A stretch of DNA of 64,000 nucleotides from Candidatus Bathyarchaeota archaeon (GTDB lineage Archaea > Thermoproteota > Bathyarchaeia > TCS64): assembly GCA_963820555.1 (NCBI GenBank), contig CAWGAT010000047.1, positions 33,982 to 97,981 on the forward strand, written 5' to 3'. The notes beneath the pieces were generated by a model. It did no database searches, was not told the DNA's origin, and was given only the letters and a program-made list of their open reading frames with translations. Shown piece by piece: positions 1 to 50,556 of this stretch. Both the position numbers and the translations under genes were made by a program. Positions within the stretch are counted from its first letter, which is position 1; each line of letters opens with the position of its first letter.

Positions 1-231
1 TCGAGCAGATGGGCGTCACATTCCGCCGAGACGCCGACACGAAGAGGCCGCGCGTCAACAAGCCGGGTAGCAGGCTGGATAAGGAGCAGAAGGAGACCAG
101 GCGCTACTACTACTCCGGCTAACTTGCGTGGCAGTAGATAACGAAAAAATCTACGGGCACCGAAAGGGTTTGTCCCTTTCGATAATTCTTCTCTAAGAAA
201 ACGCTCAGTCTGAACAATATGCATCCATAGT

Positions 232-10209: not shown

Positions 10210-11247
10210 TAAACGCCCCTTCTAGGAGCCGATGGACTGGAAAGAGACCGACGAGAGGCTCATCAGACGAGGAGAGCTCATCCTGGACCCCTCCCTCATG
10301 AAAAACCACGTAAAAGAACTAAAAACCATGAACAGGCACAGAATAGGACGTCCCTACACCCTATCAAACAGCATCATCAAGCTCCTCACAGCAGTCCGCT
10401 ACCTCTACGGCCTCCCCTACCGCCAACTCGAAGGATTCACCAGAGCACTACACAGACTCGTACCTGACATGCCCACCGGCGACTACTCCGGCCTCCGCAA
10501 ACGGATCCTCGGCCAGCCCGTCGACCCCTACAAGGACCTCAAAGACGCCACCGAGCCCGTAACCATCGCCGTCGACTCCACCGGCATCAGCGTCCACAGG
10601 GCCGGAGGCTGGATAGAGAGGAAGCACGGGAAGAAGAGGAGGTACATCAAGCTCCACTTCGCCGTAAACACGGAGACCCACGAGGTGGTCGCTATGGAGG
10701 TCAGCACCGACGACGTTCACGACGTGAAGGCCCTCCCAGCGCTCGTGGAGGAGTCGGGGAGGAATGTCCGGGTCTCTGGGCTCCTCGGGGATGGTGCCTA
10801 CGACTCGTCGAAGGTCTACGCTCTGCTGGAGGGTCGGGGGATCGAGGCGGTTGTTAAGCCGAAGAGGAACGGTAGGTCTGATCGGGGTCATCCGGGCAGG
10901 CGTCGGGCGGTGGAGCTGGTGAGGAGTTTAGGGTATGATGGTTGGGCTGAGAGGGTGGGGTACGGGCGTAGGTGGGCTGTTGAGACGGCTTACTCGACGT
11001 TTAAGCGGTTGTTTGGGGAGCACAGCCTCGCCAGGAGCTTTGAGGGCATTGCGAGGGAGCTGGCTGGGAAGGTTTCGTTGTACAATATGCTGGTGAACCT
11101 GTGAGAGGTGGGGGCGACGTGGGCTTGTGTAGAGAGGGCTCTAATGGATTTTAACTAAATCCACAGAGCAGTTCTACGCACTTCTCAACGGAAGTTTACC
11201 TCATTACTGGCAAAAGGTTCGCTTCGAGTAGAAGAAGGGCGCTTTCG
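10210..11247 (+). mobile_element. IS5-family insertion sequence (approximate ends)
   Basis: Transposase ORF 10232..11104. Candidate imperfect inverted repeats are aaacgccccttctagg at ~10210-10225 and gaagggcgctttcgg at ~11232-11247. The ends are uncertain. Confidence 0.4.
10232..11104 (+). CDS. IS5-family DDE transposase
   Basis: 290 aa. Catalytic D in IAVDSTGISV, second D in LLGDGAYDS, E in WAVETAYSTFKRLFGE. Spacing and motifs match IS5/ISH-type transposases. Confidence 0.75.
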   Translation: MDWKETDERLIRRGELILDPSLMKNHVKELKTMNRHRIGRPYTLSNSIIKLLTAVRYLYGLPYRQLEGFTRALHRLVPDMPTGDYSGLRKRILGQPVDPYKDLKDATEPVTIAVDSTGISVHRAGGWIERKHGKKRRYIKLHFAVNTETHEVVAMEVSTDDVHDVKALPALVEESGRNVRVSGLLGDGAYDSSKVYALLEGRGIEAVVKPKRNGRSDRGHPGRRRAVELVRSLGYDGWAERVGYGRRWAVETAYSTFKRLFGEHSLARSFEGIARELAGKVSLYNMLVNL

Positions 11248-13067: not shown

Positions 13068-13655
13068 GTGCTTCTGCATAAATATCTGGAGAAACTCCTG
13101 GGATCCAAGGCCAAAGTGAAGATACTAAGAGCCTTACAACGCCACAGAGGCAAAGAGTTCACCGTGCGTGAGCTCGCAGATTACATTAATATCTCCCACA
13201 CAGGCGTCCATAAAGCCCTCATTGACTTATATGACATGAACGTGATCACCCTCAAATCTGTCGGAAAATCCCACACGGTGACCCTAAACGAGGAAAGCCA
13301 TACGAGGGACCTGTTAGAATACCTATTCAAATTCGAGGAGGAGACCCTAAGAGCGCTCCAGAGTCTTATAAATAATTACCTCTGTAGCCAACCTAATATT
13401 AGTTCAGCCGCAATATTCGGAAGCGTTGCTCGCGGAGAAGAGGAACCTCGAAGCGACATCGACCTCCTGATACTATCAAATGACAGGGAAAAAGCGGAAG
13501 TGGCAGTCTCAGAGCTTCAAGTTGAGGTCTCCAGAAAGTTCGGGAACCCCCTAACTACATACATCATAACTAGAGAGGAGCTGGAAGGGAGGAAAATACC
13601 TTTAATGAAAGAGATACAGGAGCAACACATCATGATCTGCGGCGAAACTCTGTAG
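13068..13655 (+). CDS. fusion of an N-terminal winged HTH and a minimal nucleotidyltransferase (MNT, Pol-beta-like) domain
   Basis: N-terminus: AKVKILRALQRHRGKEFTVRELADYINISHTGVHKALIDL (wHTH). C-terminus: IFGSVARGEEEPRSDIDLLIL (the GS-x-ARG ... DxD nucleotidyltransferase signature). Sits in an AT-rich island. No cognate HEPN partner ORF was found. Confidence 0.7.
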   Translation: MLLHKYLEKLLGSKAKVKILRALQRHRGKEFTVRELADYINISHTGVHKALIDLYDMNVITLKSVGKSHTVTLNEESHTRDLLEYLFKFEEETLRALQSLINNYLCSQPNISSAAIFGSVARGEEEPRSDIDLLILSNDREKAEVAVSELQVEVSRKFGNPLTTYIITREELEGRKIPLMKEIQEQHIMICGETL

Positions 13656-44445: not shown

Positions 44446-45201
44446 TTGATCCCCTTGGGCTACCGGGAGAGGGCTGTGTTCAGGCCAGTGAGTCTCCTCT
44501 ACTTCATACTGCTTCTATTGGCGCTTGTCGCTGTGGTGCCCATCATCTTCCTGTTGATCGGGGATCTCCTTGTCTCCGCCCTCGGGATACCGGCGCAGTG
44601 GGTTGGCGTCTTCCTCTTCGTGAGCTTGGTCGGTAGTCTCGTCAACATACCAGTCGCGACCTTGGAGAGCAGGGTGCCCGTCGTCGGGGTACGGGAGATC
44701 AGCGTCTTCGGAGTCACATGGCAGGTACCGAGTGTGGGCTTCGGTGTCACGAAGACGCACGTCCTCATTAACATCGGCGGGGCGGTGCTTCCAATGATCG
44801 TATCAGGTTACCTTCTCGGCATGCCGATCATCCACGCCCCTGGCAACCCAGTCGACGAATACATCGCGATAGGGGCGGTGCTCCTAATTGTGACCGTTCT
44901 TGTGAATAGGTCGGCGCAGGTCGTGGAAGGGCTCGGGGTGGCGACGCCCGCCCTAGTCCCACCGCTCGTCACGGCCCTGGCGACTATACTCGTCGACTAC
45001 CTCTCCCCCCTCCACTCGCCGGCGCAGATAGCATACATAGGCGGAACCCTGGGAACCCTCATAGGAGCGGACCTCCTCAATCTCCATAAGATTAGGGACA
45101 TAGGGGCACCAGTCGTCAGCATCGGAGGCGCCGGGACGTTCGACGGCATCTACTTCACGGGGATAGTCTCCGTCCTACTAGTCGCCCTAGCGCTAGGGTA
45201 A
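44446..45201 (+). CDS. DUF1614-family integral membrane protein
   Basis: 251 aa, ~7 TM helices, Gly/Ala-rich repeats typical of the archaeal DUF1614 family. Confidence 0.5.
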   Translation: MIPLGYRERAVFRPVSLLYFILLLLALVAVVPIIFLLIGDLLVSALGIPAQWVGVFLFVSLVGSLVNIPVATLESRVPVVGVREISVFGVTWQVPSVGFGVTKTHVLINIGGAVLPMIVSGYLLGMPIIHAPGNPVDEYIAIGAVLLIVTVLVNRSAQVVEGLGVATPALVPPLVTALATILVDYLSPLHSPAQIAYIGGTLGTLIGADLLNLHKIRDIGAPVVSIGGAGTFDGIYFTGIVSVLLVALALG

Positions 45202-45420
45202 TCCTCATCTAACGTACAAGAGGGTTATTTAAGGAATTGATTCCTTTTGTAGAGATTCATGAGGTAAATTCATCAACAGAGAGATGCTCTGATTCCACTG
45301 CATCAGACGCAATTAATCAGCATATCCAGGCCTTAGCCCGTTATTAGCTGATAAAGCGCATTAATGGCCGTTATAAGCGGTTAAAAAATCTCTAATTGAT
45401 AGCTGGGTACAATGGAACGC

Positions 45421-45655
45421 GCTTATACCTTAGCGGTAGTGATTGCTTTGCCCAGGTGGGAGCGGACGAAGGGTCGAAGCGGTGGAAGACCCCCAAAGCC
45501 GCAGAGCCGTGAGGAGTGGGCTGCGAAGGACCAGGCGGGCTTTGGCTAGCCGGGAAACCTGCTCTCCTCAGCTGATCAAGCGTGCACGCGTGACGTACCC
45601 GGGACGGGTAAAACCACGCGAGGTCGGCTCCGGTAATCTCGCTTGGGCACCTCTA
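45421..45655. ncRNA. candidate structured non-coding RNA (GC-rich ~235 nt island inside an AT-rich spacer). Identity unresolved.
   Basis: GC is ~62% here versus ~33% in the flanks (45200-45420, 45656-45930). Local complementary segments exist, for example GAGGAG at 45510-45515 and CTCCTC at 45563-45568. The overlapping 104 aa ORF (45443..45757) has non-protein-like composition. Confidence 0.35.
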
Positions 45656-45927
45656 TTCTTCGATAATTACCTACATTATGAATCAGCAATGTTCTCATTA
45701 GTCTTATCCTCAGTTTCACCTGATAGTCGTGTCATCATGTTTCTTGGAGTAGATTGAAGTCTTTCCTTATCTTTGAACCAGTTCCATAACCATAAAGAAA
45801 TTTTTGCATAAGCCTCATCCTATGTGCAATAATTTTGTCCTACATTCCTCAAGCTTAAAGAAAATAGGATTTTAACAGCAAGATTCAGACTCAATACTTA
45901 AATCCACACAGCTTCCTGAGGCAGACA

Positions 45928-46365
45928 ATGGTAAAAATAGGAATTGTAAGATGCACAAGAGACTTCGAGTGCTCAGGATGCAACTGCTTCTACGCCATAA
46001 AGGAACACGATGGCGCATTCAAGGACTACAATGAACCAATCGAAATCGTGGGAATTACACCGTGTTCAGTATGCAAGGGAGGAGAGATCAACGATGAACT
46101 TGTCAATCTTAAGCGATACGGCGCTGATGTAATTCATCTATCCTCGTGTCACCTCGCTGTTTATCCACCGTGTCCATTCATCGCGGAGCATAAGAAGCAC
46201 ATTGAGGAGCTTCTGGGGCTTCCGGTTGTTGTTGGTACTCACCCGATGCCTACTAGTTATGTTGAGAAGCATACGCGGCTCGGAGACTGGAGGGGGTGCG
46301 AAGGGTTTCTCTCGAAGATAATCGGCGATGTTAAGGCTTCGTTGAAGTATGAGTCAAAGAGGTGA
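45928..46365 (+). CDS. CGGC-domain protein
   Basis: 145 aa. CTRDFECSGCNCF ... CSVCKGG ... SSCHL ... PPCPF. The Cys pattern of the CGGC domain family. Low GC (~45%). Confidence 0.5.
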   Translation: MVKIGIVRCTRDFECSGCNCFYAIKEHDGAFKDYNEPIEIVGITPCSVCKGGEINDELVNLKRYGADVIHLSSCHLAVYPPCPFIAEHKKHIEELLGLPVVVGTHPMPTSYVEKHTRLGDWRGCEGFLSKIIGDVKASLKYESKR

Positions 46366-46554
46366 GTGTAATCTTAGTTGCCGACCCACTGTAGGAACAA
46401 CTGCACTAATTATGTTGTGTACGAGTAACTCAATAGCCCAACCTCAGTTCGACCGTGATGGCATGGTTGATCTACAGACCGTTGATGTTTTAATGCGCAC
46501 GCGGCTCAGTGAATTGGAGCCGGCAGCAGTCGGCGGCTCTGTGAGGAGAAACGA

Positions 46555-47541
46555 ATGAAGGTCATCGACGTCCACAACCACGTGAACCCGCGTCCATTCC
46601 TGGAGGCAATGCGAGCCAGTCATGATTGGTACGGGTTCACCGCCGAGCACGGCGAGCTTGAGAACCCCCGGAACCACTGGACCCTAGAAGAGCGGATTGC
46701 CGACATGGACCGGCTCGGGGTGGGAATGCAGGCGCTCACCGTCTACGGCGGCTTCAACAAATACGACCGCGACCCAGAGCTCACCAAGGCAGTGGTCAGG
46801 GCCTGCAACGACGAGGTGGCGGCCATGGTCTATGAGCACCCCGATCGGTTCGTGGGCCTGGGCATTCTTCCCATGCAGGACGTGGCGGCATCGGTAGTTG
46901 AGCTCGAGCGGGCGGTCGCCGATCTCGGGCTGAAGGGCGTCACCATCAAGGACCACATCAACGGGAACACCCTAGACGAACCGCAGTTCCTCCCATTCTG
47001 GGAGGCCGCTGAGCGGCTGGGAGCCGTCGTTGAGTTCCACCAGGGCAGCACGATCGTGACGCAGCGGATCCCTCGCTACTTCCTTGAGAACACCGTGGGC
47101 AACCTGGTGGAGCGGGTCCTCACCTTTGGGGCTCTGGTGCAGGGCGGGATCATCGATCGCTTCCCCAAGCTGAAGGTTTGTCTGTTGCACGGGGGCGGCT
47201 ACGTGGCTTTCGGGGTTGCCCGAATGGACAAGGGCTGGGAGGCGGTGAAGCTGGGCTATATGGCCGAGTACTCGGCCGGTGAGGATGCCCGCCAGTCGAT
47301 CTCCAAGCCTCCGAGCCAGTACGTGGGGAGCTTCTATTACGACTGTGCCACCTTCAGCGAACCGACTCTGCGGTTCCTGATAGACACTGTGGGGATCGAT
47401 AGGGTCGTATTCGGGACCGACTACCCATGCCCTATGGAGATGGTGGACTCGGTTAACTGGATCAACAGCCTGGGGAGCCTGACCTACTCGGAGAAGCAGG
47501 CGATTTTGTCGGTGAACCCGGCCCGGATGCTCGGTATCTGA
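46555..47541 (+). CDS. amidohydrolase-2 family (ACMSD-like) metal-dependent hydrolase
   Basis: 328 aa. MKVIDVHNHV ... HGGG ... FGTDYP. The TIM-barrel amidohydrolase 2 signature. Confidence 0.7.
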   Translation: MKVIDVHNHVNPRPFLEAMRASHDWYGFTAEHGELENPRNHWTLEERIADMDRLGVGMQALTVYGGFNKYDRDPELTKAVVRACNDEVAAMVYEHPDRFVGLGILPMQDVAASVVELERAVADLGLKGVTIKDHINGNTLDEPQFLPFWEAAERLGAVVEFHQGSTIVTQRIPRYFLENTVGNLVERVLTFGALVQGGIIDRFPKLKVCLLHGGGYVAFGVARMDKGWEAVKLGYMAEYSAGEDARQSISKPPSQYVGSFYYDCATFSEPTLRFLIDTVGIDRVVFGTDYPCPMEMVDSVNWINSLGSLTYSEKQAILSVNPARMLGI

Positions 47542-47767
47542 CCCGTTGGCTATCTCACCGTGTGGCTTCCATAGCCTTATCCTCACTTCCACCCGATACT
47601 CAACCGTGTTCATGCGCAGATACTCTAAATATAATGAATATTTCTTTGGTATTCAACCGTAAATTGAATAGTTGACCACCTAATCCTTCAATCGTACGCG
47701 AGATTCAGCTAGGGCTCTTCACATGACGTGAGGATTTTTTTATTAGAAACCGACATTCAATAACATT

Positions 47768-48109
47768 ATGGCGAACCTCATCCAGGCGATAATCGTTATA
47801 CTCGCGGGAATCGCAGTGGCTATCGCGGATGGCATCATTAAAAAGACAGCCATCGGCGTTTCCTTCCCCGATGCGCTAAAGAACCCTCTCATGATAGGCG
47901 TGGTGTTCCTGTATCTTGTGCAGATTGCGTTTTTCACCTATGTCTTCGTGAATGATTGGCAGTTGGGGGTTGTCGGTGTTTTACAGATGGTGGCTTACTC
48001 CACATTTGTGATAATTACGGGCGTCTTCATCTTCAAGGAGAGCTTTACTGTGACTCAGTACCTAGGTTTTATTTTAGCGATTAGTGGTGCTGTTCTGATC
48101 AATTTATGA
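47768..48109 (+). CDS. small 4-TM membrane protein (SMR/EamA-like)
   Basis: 113 aa, four hydrophobic helices, low GC. Confidence 0.4.
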   Translation: MANLIQAIIVILAGIAVAIADGIIKKTAIGVSFPDALKNPLMIGVVFLYLVQIAFFTYVFVNDWQLGVVGVLQMVAYSTFVIITGVFIFKESFTVTQYLGFILAISGAVLINL

Positions 48110-48297
48110 ATTTTTGTTTCGAATGTGCTTAATAAACACATCCTCAGCTCCACCTGATTGCGTCGCCAAAATAAACCAGGAAAAAAGGGGAAGGCCTATC
48201 GTTTGTAGTATACGACCGGGCGCACATCTCTACACAAAGGAGGTAAAAGTTTAATCATCAGATTACGCGAGTAGCTCTATCAGCAATTTATCCGAAG

Positions 48298-48540
48298 ATG
48301 AATCACATGAGTGAATCAAAAAAAGTTGGACCAGAACTCATTGTATCTATCCTCAGGGAAGCGAAAAAACCCCTAACTACAAGACAACTACAACAAGAGG
48401 TTCAGAAATTAGTTCCATTCTGTCTATCTGATAATGTAATTGCATTGAATCTGATGAGAGTCAGAGGAACGATTAAAGGAAAACTCACCGAGAATAGATC
48501 TTGGATCTGGTGGATCGAAGACAAGGAAGAAAGCAAATGA
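48298..48540 (+). CDS. small wHTH-like DNA-binding protein
   Basis: 80 aa. LIVSILREAKKPLTTRQLQQEVQK ... Low GC. Confidence 0.3.
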   Translation: MNHMSESKKVGPELIVSILREAKKPLTTRQLQQEVQKLVPFCLSDNVIALNLMRVRGTIKGKLTENRSWIWWIEDKEESK

Positions 48541-48655
48541 AAACAATTGTCTATGCATGCATATGCGTATCAAGAGATTACAATAAAGCGCGCGCGGAGC
48601 ACCCTGAACTGAAGACTTAGCCCTCAATAGCATCATTCTTCCTTCCACCGGCTAT

Positions 48656-48701
48656 TCGAAAAATCTTACCACAAATTTACTTTGGCATAAGCCTCATCTA
48701 A
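48656..48701. repeat. 46-bp direct repeat, copy B (tcgaaaaatcttaccacaaatttactttggcataagcctcatctaa)
   Basis: 44/46 identical to copy C at 49927-49972. A partial 19-bp copy lies at 45802-45820. Confidence 0.8.
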
Positions 48702-49005
48702 CGCACGCTGGACCCGCTGAACCGCCGCCCTTGACCCTCCATCTGATGCCTTCAATACTTGGTGCCTTCAGCTGAGTAGGTGCTTGGGCTGGTCTGGTTG
48801 AGGCATTCATTCTGAGGATGGTTCGTGCTTCGAGTAGACACCTCTCGCTCTCCTCTATGATGCTGAGCAGCTTCTCGACTTGGCTCTGACTCAATGTGAC
48901 CGTGACACTCAACGCTGCGACCTCAGCCTTTGGCGGCTCGCTCAGCTTCTTAAAACCTAGGCACATCAATGCAGGAGGCAGTCGAATGAATATTGATGCG
49001 CACAC
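48694..49005 (-). CDS. hypothetical protein
   Basis: 103 aa. Its stop overlaps repeat B. No motif. Weak. Confidence 0.2.
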   Translation of the reverse strand: MCASIFIRLPPALMCLGFKKLSEPPKAEVAALSVTVTLSQSQVEKLLSIIEESERCLLEARTILRMNASTRPAQAPTQLKAPSIEGIRWRVKGGGSAGPACVR

Positions 49006-49072
49006 GCATCGTACAGGGATAGAGCTACGGCTAGCTGATGATTCCCCTACCTCCTCCAGTTCCTTCCTTCAC

Positions 49073-49855
49073 TTATCCGTAGAATCCAGCGGTCAATCCA
49101 CCATCGACGAAGAGAATGTGACCATTGACATATCTTGAGTCGTCGGATGCGAGGAAGAGCGCCCCCAGGGCTATGTCTTCTGGTTTAGCAAACCGCCCCA
49201 TCGGTATCTTCTTGAGAAGGAAGTTCTTCGATTCTTCCGGGTTTGGAGTACTCTCGATCGATGCCGTCCACTGAGGTGTTATCGTCTCCCCCGGGACCAG
49301 TCCGTTGACCCTGATGTTGTCTTTGGCATATTCGAGGCACATCGACCTCGTCAATTCCCGCACGGCCCCTTTCGATGCACCGTACGCTTGACTCCCCACA
49401 TAGTTCATGTAGGCGTTCGTGGTGATGGTGTTTATTATCGATCCACCACCCTTTTCAATCATAATCGGGACCACTTCCTTCGATACGAGAAACACCCCGC
49501 GCAGGTTCAGGTTGATGAGCCTGTCCCACTCCTCCTCGGAATCGTTAACGACCGTATCCTTGTTTTCCCTCTGCCATCCTCCCACATTGTTGTGCAGTAT
49601 ATCGATTCCATTGTAGCGATCACGTACTTGACTGACCATGGCTTTCACCTCCGACCACTTTGTCACGTTCGCCTTGTAGAACGTGGCTTCTCCCTTGGCT
49701 TCTTGAATCAGCCGTACAGTTTCGTGACCCCCCTCTCCGCTGATGTCGTTTACTGCGACTTGGGCGCCCTCCGCTGCGAATAGGATGGCCGTGGCCCTGC
49801 CAATACCCGAACCCGCTCCCGTGATCAGTGCGGTTTTTCCATGTAGTCTGTTCAT
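49073..49855 (-). CDS. short-chain dehydrogenase/reductase (SDR)
   Basis: TGAGSGIGRA NAD-binding motif, NNVG, catalytic S...YxxxK (YGASKGAV). Start at Met 18 of the ORF-track product. Confidence 0.85.
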   Translation of the reverse strand: MNRLHGKTALITGAGSGIGRATAILFAAEGAQVAVNDISGEGGHETVRLIQEAKGEATFYKANVTKWSEVKAMVSQVRDRYNGIDILHNNVGGWQRENKDTVVNDSEEEWDRLINLNLRGVFLVSKEVVPIMIEKGGGSIINTITTNAYMNYVGSQAYGASKGAVRELTRSMCLEYAKDNIRVNGLVPGETITPQWTASIESTPNPEESKNFLLKKIPMGRFAKPEDIALGALFLASDDSRYVNGHILFVDGGLTAGFYG

Positions 49856-49926
49856 ACCACTTTCTTCTTTCGCAGCAACGGTTAATATGTGTAGGGAATT
49901 ACGCAAGCCTCTGCTCCATCTGATAC

Positions 49927-49972
49927 TCGAAAAATCTTACCACAAAGTTGCTTTGGCATAAGCCTCATCTAA
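49927..49972. repeat. 46-bp direct repeat, copy C (tcgaaaaatcttaccacaaagttgctttggcataagcctcatctaa)
   Basis: See copy B. It lies ~20 bp upstream of the rusA-like start. Confidence 0.8.
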
Positions 49973-49994
49973 GCGACGCGTGCATTCTTCGTGT

Positions 49995-50426
49995 ATGCAG
50001 CACGTTTACTTCGAGGTGAAGGGGGACCCTGTGCCGAAGGCGCGCGCCCGCACGGTGAGGAAAGGCGGGAGGACTTGGAGCTTCACCCCGAAGAAGGTCG
50101 CGGTCTGGGAGAAGACTGTGAAGGAGGAGGCGGTGAAACACTTCGAGCAGCCCTTAGTCGGTCCGATTCAGGTATCCATGATATTCTACATGGACCGCCC
50201 AAAGTCCCGGCGAAAGGATGTCTGGGTCCCCACTACACCTGATCTTGACAACCTTGAAAAGGCAGTCCTCGACGCCCTCAACGGGGTCGCCTATGAGGAC
50301 GACCGCTTTGTTGTGGCGAAAAACGCGCAGAAGAAGTACATCCGACGGGATGAGCCCAAGGTTTGCGTCAGGGTTACGAGCTTGAGTAATCAGGTTTCAA
50401 TTGATGGATTCTCTAAACCCGAGTAG
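49995..50426 (+). CDS. rusA: RusA-like Holliday-junction resolvase
   Basis: VKGDPVPKARARTV ... FTPKKVAVWEKTV ... DRPKSRRKDVWVPTTPDLDNLEKAVLDALNGVAYEDDRFV. The RusA catalytic Asp cluster and Lys. A typically phage- or prophage-borne gene. Confidence 0.65.
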   Translation: MQHVYFEVKGDPVPKARARTVRKGGRTWSFTPKKVAVWEKTVKEEAVKHFEQPLVGPIQVSMIFYMDRPKSRRKDVWVPTTPDLDNLEKAVLDALNGVAYEDDRFVVAKNAQKKYIRRDEPKVCVRVTSLSNQVSIDGFSKPE

Positions 50427-50469: not shown

Positions 50470-50556
50470 GCCGGGGTAGCCAAGCGGACCACGGCGCCAG
50501 TCTTGAAAACTGGTGCTCTTACGAGCCCATGGGTTCGAATCCCATCCCCGGCGCCA
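50470..50556 (+). tRNA. tRNA-Ser (anticodon TGA) with a long variable arm and an encoded CCA
   Basis: Acceptor GCCGGGG/CCCCGGC, anticodon stem CCAGT/ACTGG, loop CTTGAAA, long variable arm, T-arm ATGGGTTCGAATCCCAT, discriminator G then CCA. Confidence 0.85.

Follow-up and report, generated by a model that had tools for sequence, protein, structure and literature searches.

What does a nearly perfect 46-bp direct repeat do on both sides of an SDR gene in an archaeal genome? We address this question for a stretch of 64,000 nucleotides from contig CAWGAT010000047.1 (assembly GCA_963820555.1) of a Candidatus Bathyarchaeota archaeon, which at its full length is called the window here. In a reading made from the sequence alone, two copies of the repeat had been noticed at 48656-48701 and 49927-49972, the second one just upstream of a rusA-like gene, and three options had been offered: recombination scars of a small integrated cassette, a repeated promoter or operator, or a small repeated RNA element. 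We report that the repeats represent copies of an intergenic module which is apparently undescribed and specific to Bathyarchaeia. Our preferred explanation, to which we assign a probability of roughly 55%, is that these modules are the promoter-carrying junctions of mostly single-gene accessory arrays and also serve as substrates of recombination. The recombination option and the promoter option appear to be two sides of one thing.

Extent of the repeats

Both copies were recovered at these positions, and 44 of the 46 positions are identical (two differ). If the alignment is extended without gaps, the similarity comprises 65 nt (48644-48708 compared to 49915-49979) at 86% identity; the two extended members are called copy B and copy C in the following. 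A 19-bp core had also been placed further upstream at 45802-45820. This is correct for 18 nt (45802-45819), in which one position is mismatched (T for G), whereas position 45820 is unmatched, and the third partial member extends over 45789-45819.

If up to three mismatches are allowed, three occurrences of the 18-mer (TTTGGCATAAGCCTCATC) are found in 64 kb, compared to 0.01 expected, and the left 20-mer occurs twice in the window with 0.00 expected. A second motif, Block1 (ATCCTCAGYTCCACCTGATA), is found on the plus strand at 45706, 47579, 48140 and 49906 (0.01 expected) and stands immediately 5' of the 46-mer in copies B and C. All matches of the family profile in the window are on the plus strand and lie within 45203-50017. 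As conditions that would speak against its proposal the sequence-only reading had named hundreds of copies at gene 5' ends, or absence from any other place. What we find is neither of these extremes: there are many copies, they are clustered in arrays, and they are missing from the other approximately 59 kb of the window. A chimeric assembly join at copy B may be considered as well; against it, the longest exact matches between copies B and C are only 20-22 nt.

An element family of Bathyarchaeia

The complete element has the layout Block1-Block2-Block3-Block4-Block1', with the consensus CCATAGCCTTATCCTCAsyTCCACCTGATACTCG for Block1, AAAAATCTTAACCCAAAnnnnC for Block2, TTTGGCATAAGCCTCATCTAA for Block3, and CGTGCAATAAT or one of two longer variants for Block4. 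At many junctions Block1 occurs alone. We scanned one genome per species with TTTKGCATAAGCCTCATC. Bacteria yielded isolated chance matches, while multiple matches were found in metagenome-assembled genomes (MAGs) of Bathyarchaeia (10 in RBG_13_52_12, 8 in OBJ1_062018_150_2 and 2 in SPRUCE 177), and the flanks of these matches align over approximately 130 nt. A stricter pattern with 32 specified bases led to 29 loci in freshwater-sediment and peat metagenomes. The sequences compared here are from MAGs and metagenome contigs. Viral contigs gave chance matches of the 18-mer inside coding DNA only and no Block1, the phage and plasmid collections contained no match to the element, and no description of the family was found in the literature searched.

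Over 44 nt, copy B shares 97.7% identity with a copy from a peat MAG (locus L044); copy C shares 93% identity over 59 nt with the copy of locus L072 and 89% over 65 nt with that of L085. The similarity between copies B and C thus does not exceed that to copies from other genomes, which is an argument against a private duplication from one integration. The elements are better conserved than the DNA they flank: the mean column identity of aligned Block2-3 copies is 83%, compared to 27-45% identity between the flanked DUF4760 paralogues.

In the window the family begins with a minimal core (TAATCCTCATCTAACGTAC, 45199-45217, plus strand) directly 3' of the DUF1614 stop codon, which was matched by the repeat family and by the profile (45203-45228). 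It is followed on the same strand by a Block1 copy (TTATCCTCAGTTTCACCTGATA, 45690-45729) that was returned by the repeat, motif and profile searches, and by copy A (45789-45866) with a non-canonical Block2, a Block3 (TTTTGCATAAGCCTCATC) and a degenerate Block4/Block1'. Another Block1 copy lies at 47560-47602 between the Amidohydro_2 gene and the gene of an EamA-like membrane protein (nhmmer E 1.4e-4, two mismatches to the consensus), and a Block1-like copy with one mismatch over 20 nt lies at 48133-48162 between the EamA-like and a winged-helix (wHTH) gene. Copy B (48644-48708, plus strand, nhmmer E 7e-24) consists of a degenerate Block1, Block2 and Block3 followed by TAACGCACGC, and has no plus-strand gene downstream. 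In copy C (49906-49979, plus strand) Block1, Block2 and Block3 are followed by TAAGCG.

Two further observations concern the elements and their edges. By eye, a possible and very degenerate Block1 (GTAATCTTAGTTGCCGACCCACTGTAGG) can be seen at 46372-46400 directly after the CGGC stop codon, a place that the profile does not match. Runs of the GCGCGC/CGCGCG type are often present at the outer borders of elements and where junctions are truncated, e.g. at 48588-48596 and 49973-49983 of the window and in many other loci; within 80 nt of the elements GCGCGC is only 2-fold enriched.

Arrays and their cargo

The array statistics were calculated for 45 non-redundant loci comprising 391 kb and 113 profile matches. 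The orientation of the elements is uniform in 28 of the 29 loci with more than one copy, and 99 of 100 matches lie on the majority strand of their locus. Consecutive copies are separated by a median gap of 779 nt, and the spacing of 167-2962 nt is occupied by genes: 49 of 69 gaps contain exactly one open reading frame (ORF) of at least 90 amino acids. While the elements keep their direction, the genes between them do not; 50 are co-oriented with the element and 20 are inverted. The extent of the arrays is seen on longer contigs, namely L154, with 17 matches over 14 kb, all on the plus strand, and L155 with 12.

The cargo consists of various small enzymes, i.e. alpha/beta hydrolases, lactamase-fold proteins, Amidohydro_2, 2-hydroxyacid dehydrogenase, arginase, GNAT, DLH and radical SAM proteins. 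Interspersed among them, in 13 of the 45 loci, are many paralogues of DUF4760 (PF15956), up to nine in 14 kb and always co-oriented with the elements (L154, L155, L032, L097, L136 and others). At E≤1e-10 we found 1538 relatives of DUF4760, those with a source name being all from Bathyarchaeota, and most of these genes lie on contigs shorter than 3 kb. The first approximately 27 residues (MVDLxLLQSVSYIAGALGVC...) are nearly invariant, while the remainder of the proteins is 27-45% identical. The AlphaFold model (pLDDT 84.6) is all-alpha with an N-terminal transmembrane helix, and the protein would be membrane-anchored. A comparison of this model with the PDB gave no significant neighbour and thus no clue to the function and no sign of a recombinase. 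Neither PADLOC nor NCBIfam returned anything for DUF4760, and our literature search on DUF4760 or on Bathyarchaeia arrays found nothing relevant.

Junctions in related genomes

The sequence-only reading had suggested searching related genomes for an empty site lacking the 1.27 kb between copies B and C. An insert-free junction in the interval between the TatD and RusA genes does exist in three loci (L159, L160 and L161, with RusA proteins 90% identical), but the missing part is the whole 4.76 kb and not the 1.27 kb alone, and the breakpoint lies at the core CCTCATCTAA. In these loci a C-terminal remnant of DUF1614 is followed by GGGGTAATCCTCATCTAA and then by GCGGCGCG...ATG of rusA, which gives the junction form DUF1614-remnant-TAATCCTCATCTAA|GCGGCGCG-rusA; one relative has TCCTCATCTAA|GCG-rusA without an insert. 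The window has AGGGTAATCCTCATCTAA, then CGTACAAG..., 4.76 kb, GCATAAGCCTCATCTAA, and then GCGACGCG...ATG of rusA, that is TAATCCTCATCTAA|CGTAC...4.76 kb...GCCTCATCTAA|GCGACGCG-rusA. If both types of junction are compared, the extra DNA is seen to have the core on both sides as a direct repeat of 10-11 nt.

This variable segment (45214-49972) comprises the 4.76 kb between two CCTCATCTAA cores, with the minimal core described above as its left junction. It contains a non-coding piece, the CGGC, Amidohydro_2, EamA-like and wHTH genes, a truncated gene of a 124-aa family, and the SDR gene. The content of the same interval differs in further relatives: L075 has DUF1614, 213 nt and a single element whose left half is like copy A of the window (AAAGAAAYTTTTGCATAAGCC) and whose right half is like copy C, and L156 has yet another content. 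In L159 (GCA_017883585.1, 7800-7935) only the last approximately 28 codons of DUF1614 are present between TatD and rusA, and in that lineage the variable stretch thus seems to include DUF1614 itself. Inside the window the core occurs four times (45203, 45813, 48692 and 49963). Every segment between two cores ends in Block(1-)2-3, as would be expected if units were joined head to tail at a resident core.

The ORF-free piece (45335-45690, plus strand) is part of the first unit. It is 81% identical over 250 nt to positions 2537-2291 of L089 (MAG RBG_13_52_12), where two Block1 copies likewise enclose it, and this exceeds the 71% identity between the adjacent DUF1614 coding DNA and L075. The piece had no Rfam match and no fold signal.

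A further hint towards exchange of units arises from the SDR gene (49073-49858, minus strand; Pfam adh_short_C2, E 4e-62), which is anti-oriented to the elements. Its orthologues with 85-93% amino acid identity occur in three unrelated genomic contexts. The nucleotide homology (L162-L165) spans 49034/49072 to 49889/49906 and stops where Block1 of copy C begins; the upstream region of the gene (49859-49906, minus strand), with the TATA-like ACACATATTAACC, moves together with the gene in other genomes. An SDR gene and a hypothetical ORF had been described as the content between the two repeats. The SDR gene is confirmed by its Pfam match, but the ORF, which has no Pfam match, turned out to be a gene fragment, namely the N-terminal approximately 70 residues of a rare 124-aa family (48706-48912, minus strand; residues 1-68 are placed at 48912-48706 by tblastn). 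A phmmer search among 1.8 billion sequences gave eight representatives of this family (best 84% identical; consensus ...WRVKGGGSA.PSD.FAFDF...LSKDGKFLQR). The gene is cut approximately 7 nt to the right of the copy B core.

We infer from these junctions that the presence/absence differences between the genomes were probably caused by recombination. The modules would act as portable homology or recombination sites where units are gained and lost, with breakpoints concentrating at the CCTCATCTAA core, i.e. at the right end of Block3. A new unit ending in Block1-2-3 would join at the resident core, and a head-to-tail array of uniform orientation would result. Copy B would then be the right end of the preceding unit, and copy C the right end of the 1.27-kb unit (truncated gene and SDR) and also the rusA promoter. 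The idea of cassette scars is in this way retained in a broader form, as array junction modules, with relatives that lack the 4.76 kb and with the SDR gene in other contexts. Its narrower form does not hold, as copies B and C are not a private integration duplication and the left edge of the 1.27-kb unit cuts a gene.

Promoter-like motifs

In archaeal promoters an A/T-rich TATA box is centred approximately 26-27 nt upstream of the transcription start, with a purine-rich BRE (B recognition element) before it. Native genes of the window possess the motifs AGCCTTAATA, GGCTTATC, GGCTTCTTAACC, AAGCCTCATAC and AAGCCTAATACC, centred approximately 24-30 nt before their start codons, and this spacing, as read from the sequence, is the pattern of leaderless archaeal transcripts. 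The same type of motif occurs in Block1 (TAGCCTTATCC), in Block2 (AATCTTAACCC), in Block3 (TAAGCCTCATCTAA, with GAGGCTTATGCC on the other strand) and at the boundary between Block4 and Block1' (TAATCTTATCC). By inspection the blocks match the native upstream motifs, with a spacing of 28.5 nt for rusA and about 36 nt for the genes following Block1. As every block carries a motif like the BRE/TATA boxes of the host, a promoter role of the blocks is suggested.

Copy C had been placed close to the rusA-like start, and indeed 22 nt separate the end of the copy from the ATG at 49995. The centre of CCTCATCT lies 28.5 nt before this ATG, and Block3 is positioned at -36..-23 of the rusA ATG in three lineages. 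L075 and L156 share this arrangement of Block3 and rusA, and L159 has a reduced form of it; Block3 followed by TAAGCG as in copy C also stands upstream of rusA in L075, with related forms in L156 and L159. We predict that rusA is transcribed from copy C, with Block3 as its leaderless promoter.

The sequence after Block1 is AACCGTGAATnnnnATGGTTGAY. An ORF of at least 60 amino acids on the same strand starts within 60 nt of 53 of the 151 distinct Block1 copies, start distances of 15-21 nt are the most frequent, and MVD(L) is often the N-terminus in proteins from different families. Block1 might thus drive the co-oriented genes of an array through a leader of approximately 10 nt ending in ATGGTTGAC. 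The elements are homologous over 100 nt, and the homology continues into the first codons of proteins that are not related. Taken as a sequence-based prediction, the promoter option is supported by the TATA-like blocks and by the distances at which they precede the rusA ATG and the ATGGTTGAC starts. We also considered whether the reverse complement of Block1 is a Shine-Dalgarno sequence with ATG (GAGGATAAGGCTATG); this was rejected, the ORFs opened in this way having 2-7 codons without conservation and the inverted genes starting approximately 90 nt away.

Alternative explanations and known systems

A strong or co-regulated promoter or operator that takes no part in rearrangement would be one alternative. 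The arrays would then be accessory regions sharing one regulatory module, and the dyad CTTAacCCAAA-N5-TTTGGcaTAAG in the element would be bound by a dimeric regulator or by TBP/TFB. The TATA-like motifs with their fixed spacing to start codons fit this well, as does the dyad, which is 90% pairable with a variable centre and nearly invariant arms, as for a protein site; the wHTH gene adjoining copy B might also be mentioned. Because only the innermost pair of the dyad covaries (GC 29, TA 5), a hairpin and a protein site are not distinguishable here. We nevertheless regard a promoter without recombination as rather unlikely, since the orientation remains uniform even beside inverted genes, Block1 stands on both sides of anti-oriented genes (e.g. 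L154 17465-19324), copy B lacks a downstream plus-strand gene, the homology extends over 100 nt and further into the first codons of unrelated proteins, and the presence/absence breakpoints coincide with the core. Putative mobile promoters have been defined as upstream sequences with at least 80% identity over at least 50 nt before unrelated genes, common to several genomes (Matus-Garcia, Nijveen, van Passel 2012; PMC3575422). Element copies show such identity between genomes: copy C reaches it with L072 and L085, whose copies precede other, non-homologous genes. Unlike mobile promoters, the element forms long arrays of one orientation whatever the direction of the genes, occurs also at gene 3' ends, and marks presence/absence breakpoints. 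More doubtful is a non-autonomous single-strand transposon end of the IS200/IS605 type. The right end of IS200/IS605 and its PATE (palindrome-associated transposable element) derivatives has an imperfect palindrome, approximately 10 nt and the junction; insertion takes place beside a fixed short sequence, without target duplication and with strand bias. Accordingly, Block2-3 would correspond to the imperfect hairpin and CCTCATCTAA to the 10 nt behind it, with the cleavage point coming next, and insertion 3' of the same sequence would produce tandem copies of one orientation. The element does possess a right-end-like hairpin plus 10 nt with the junction right after CTAA, uniform orientation and no target-site duplication beyond the core, a layout that may be likened to the right end of IS608 and of other IS200/IS605 elements. 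A TnpB-like C-terminal fragment (CPWCG...DRDVNATRNI, L085 4208-4411) abuts the end of one element array. A consistent left-end hairpin was not found, hairpins after Block1' being present in some copies only; a TnpA gene was seen in none of the loci; only one stem pair covaries and the DNA fold z-scores lie between -1.1 and +0.8. The units moreover carry ordinary metabolic genes and promoters.

The nearest concepts to the element family are, beside putative mobile promoters, integron arrays. Integrons have been reported from Archaea (Ghaly et al. 2022, PMC9668308), and the arrays might accordingly be regarded as CALINs, i.e. clusters of attC sites lacking an integrase. Like these they consist of mostly one-gene units with a repeated site of one orientation, genes in either direction and diverse accessory enzymes, the content varies between relatives, and many integron arrays lack a nearby integrase too. 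The spacing agrees (at least two sites of the same orientation less than 4 kb apart with cassettes between them), and ATCTAAC fits the RYYYAAC core consensus by inspection. The attC identity was nevertheless dropped, and canonical attC sites are to us extremely improbable. Folds of the whole unit as single-stranded DNA, on both strands, are no better than shuffles (z -1.13 to +0.80) with only a 4+5-bp internal palindrome; the consensus contains no partner GTTRRRY and no R''/L''-L'/R' inverted structure, ATCTTAAC and ATCTAAC being direct repeats; and neither the window ORFs tested nor six annotated contexts, whose contigs are fragments, contained an IntI. In contrast to integrons, sequence and not structure is conserved across genomes at the junction, which carries promoter-like motifs and the first codons of downstream genes, and genes for DUF4760 are present again and again as a signature cargo. 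That the region contains repeats of a small RNA gene or of a cis-regulatory leader RNA is very unlikely as well. Block1 lies within the leader of many genes, some copies pair CACCTGA with TCAGGTG so that the GTGA before the start codon is overlapped, and a few G-T wobbles favour the plus strand by inspection. Yet in an Rfam scan of the window only the tRNA passes and nothing matches the repeats even at E≤10, the fold z-scores are near 0, covariation is restricted to the single pair, and copies stand at the 3' ends of inverted genes. The RNA option of the sequence-only reading is thereby disfavoured.

A comparable arrangement is known from Neisseria, where the intergenic mosaic (dRS3 flanking RS modules) and the Correia elements have short direct repeats flanking conserved intergenic modules, carry promoters and serve recombination and integration. 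Unlike these, the element has an unrelated sequence, belongs to another domain of life, brackets whole genes and lacks terminal inverted repeats. Further classes were rejected: a miniature inverted-repeat transposable element because the unit ends are direct repeats (Block1, Block1') and the only inverted repeat is internal; a CRISPR array because the gaps hold genes and the "spacer" between Block1 and Block1' is itself conserved; a known RNA family as only the tRNA matches Rfam; and C/D-box or H/ACA small RNAs by inspection and Rfam.

We return to the proposed promoter-carrying junction modules with a role in recombination, and to the points that weigh against them. Since the gene beside copy B is cut, the 1.27-kb unit lacks a clean cassette boundary on its left. 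The right ends of 65 Block3 copies mostly run on into Block4, and the truncated or unique ends are found at 0 (four independent cases), +5..8 (four), +12, +15, +20 and -3, a scatter as compatible with decay or homologous events as with a precise site. Two of the SDR contexts (L162 and L164) have no element within 7 kb, and a 6.4-kb indel between L087 and L163, examined as a second case of insertion, is not bounded by the core. No integrase or transposase stands consistently beside the arrays in approximately 90 kb of annotated context. Homologous recombination between modules of 60-130 nt with 85-95% identity would account for the data about as well as a dedicated enzyme. A promoter matrix obtained de novo by Gibbs sampling from 39 upstream regions reached 5.6 bits with scattered positions, too weak to score the blocks, so that their promoter likeness rests on inspection. 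One must also keep in mind that the loci were fetched with Block3 patterns, by which well-conserved copies are over-represented, and that the gene maps of most loci are ORF heuristics.

A more far-reaching version of the junction modules may be put forward tentatively, as a possibility we would not favour at present. Bathyarchaeia could have a cassette-array system of their own, in which single genes are captured head to tail at a module that is conserved in sequence, in place of a hairpin, and that supplies a standard archaeal promoter, with joining at CCTCATCTAA via a recombinase or nuclease and with DUF4760 as signature cargo. This would represent a functional analogue of integrons made from other components.

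Genomic surroundings

The genes around the elements are DUF1614 (44446-45201), CGGC (45928-46365), Amidohydro_2 (46555-47541), the EamA-like membrane protein (47768-48109), the small wHTH gene (48298-48540) and, as the conserved gene to the right of the junction, rusA (49995-50426, plus strand; Pfam RusA, E 1e-24), followed by tRNA-Ser (50470-50556). We counted 211 homologues of RusA; the named ones are all from Bathyarchaeota. The third-position GC lies between 0.35 and 0.83 for genes located at 45.4-50 kb, compared to 0.7-0.9 in most of the window, so that this stretch is compositionally mosaic. The window as a whole is archaeal, with genes for a histone, rpS17e and geranylgeranyl reductase.

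A gene for an IS5-family DDE transposase is located at 10232-11104 of the window, with no element nearby. Copies that are 78-81% identical to that of the window occur in the metagenome loci L146, L148 and L150, and there a copy of the element lies approximately 350 nt away. Between 13000 and 16000 the window contains an island of low GC (0.31-0.41 compared to about 0.57) with a helix-turn-helix and nucleotidyltransferase gene (13068-13655) and two ORFs without Pfam match, which is possibly a separate acquired element.

Biological meaning

For the window itself the analysis reassigns the "hypothetical ORF" as a gene fragment and predicts a promoter for rusA. Bathyarchaeia are among the most abundant archaea of sediments, and their metabolic breadth is usually ascribed to gene gain; we know of no mechanism for this gain. 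If our explanation is true, a junction module that standardises expression and marks the points of exchange would provide a physical basis for metabolic flexibility, the accessory genes concerned being SDR, amidohydrolase, hydrolases, lactamase-fold proteins and DUF4760. The module would further account for metagenome assemblies breaking at these regions, as seen in the short contigs of most DUF4760 genes, and it would offer a compact conserved promoter for a lineage without genetic tools.

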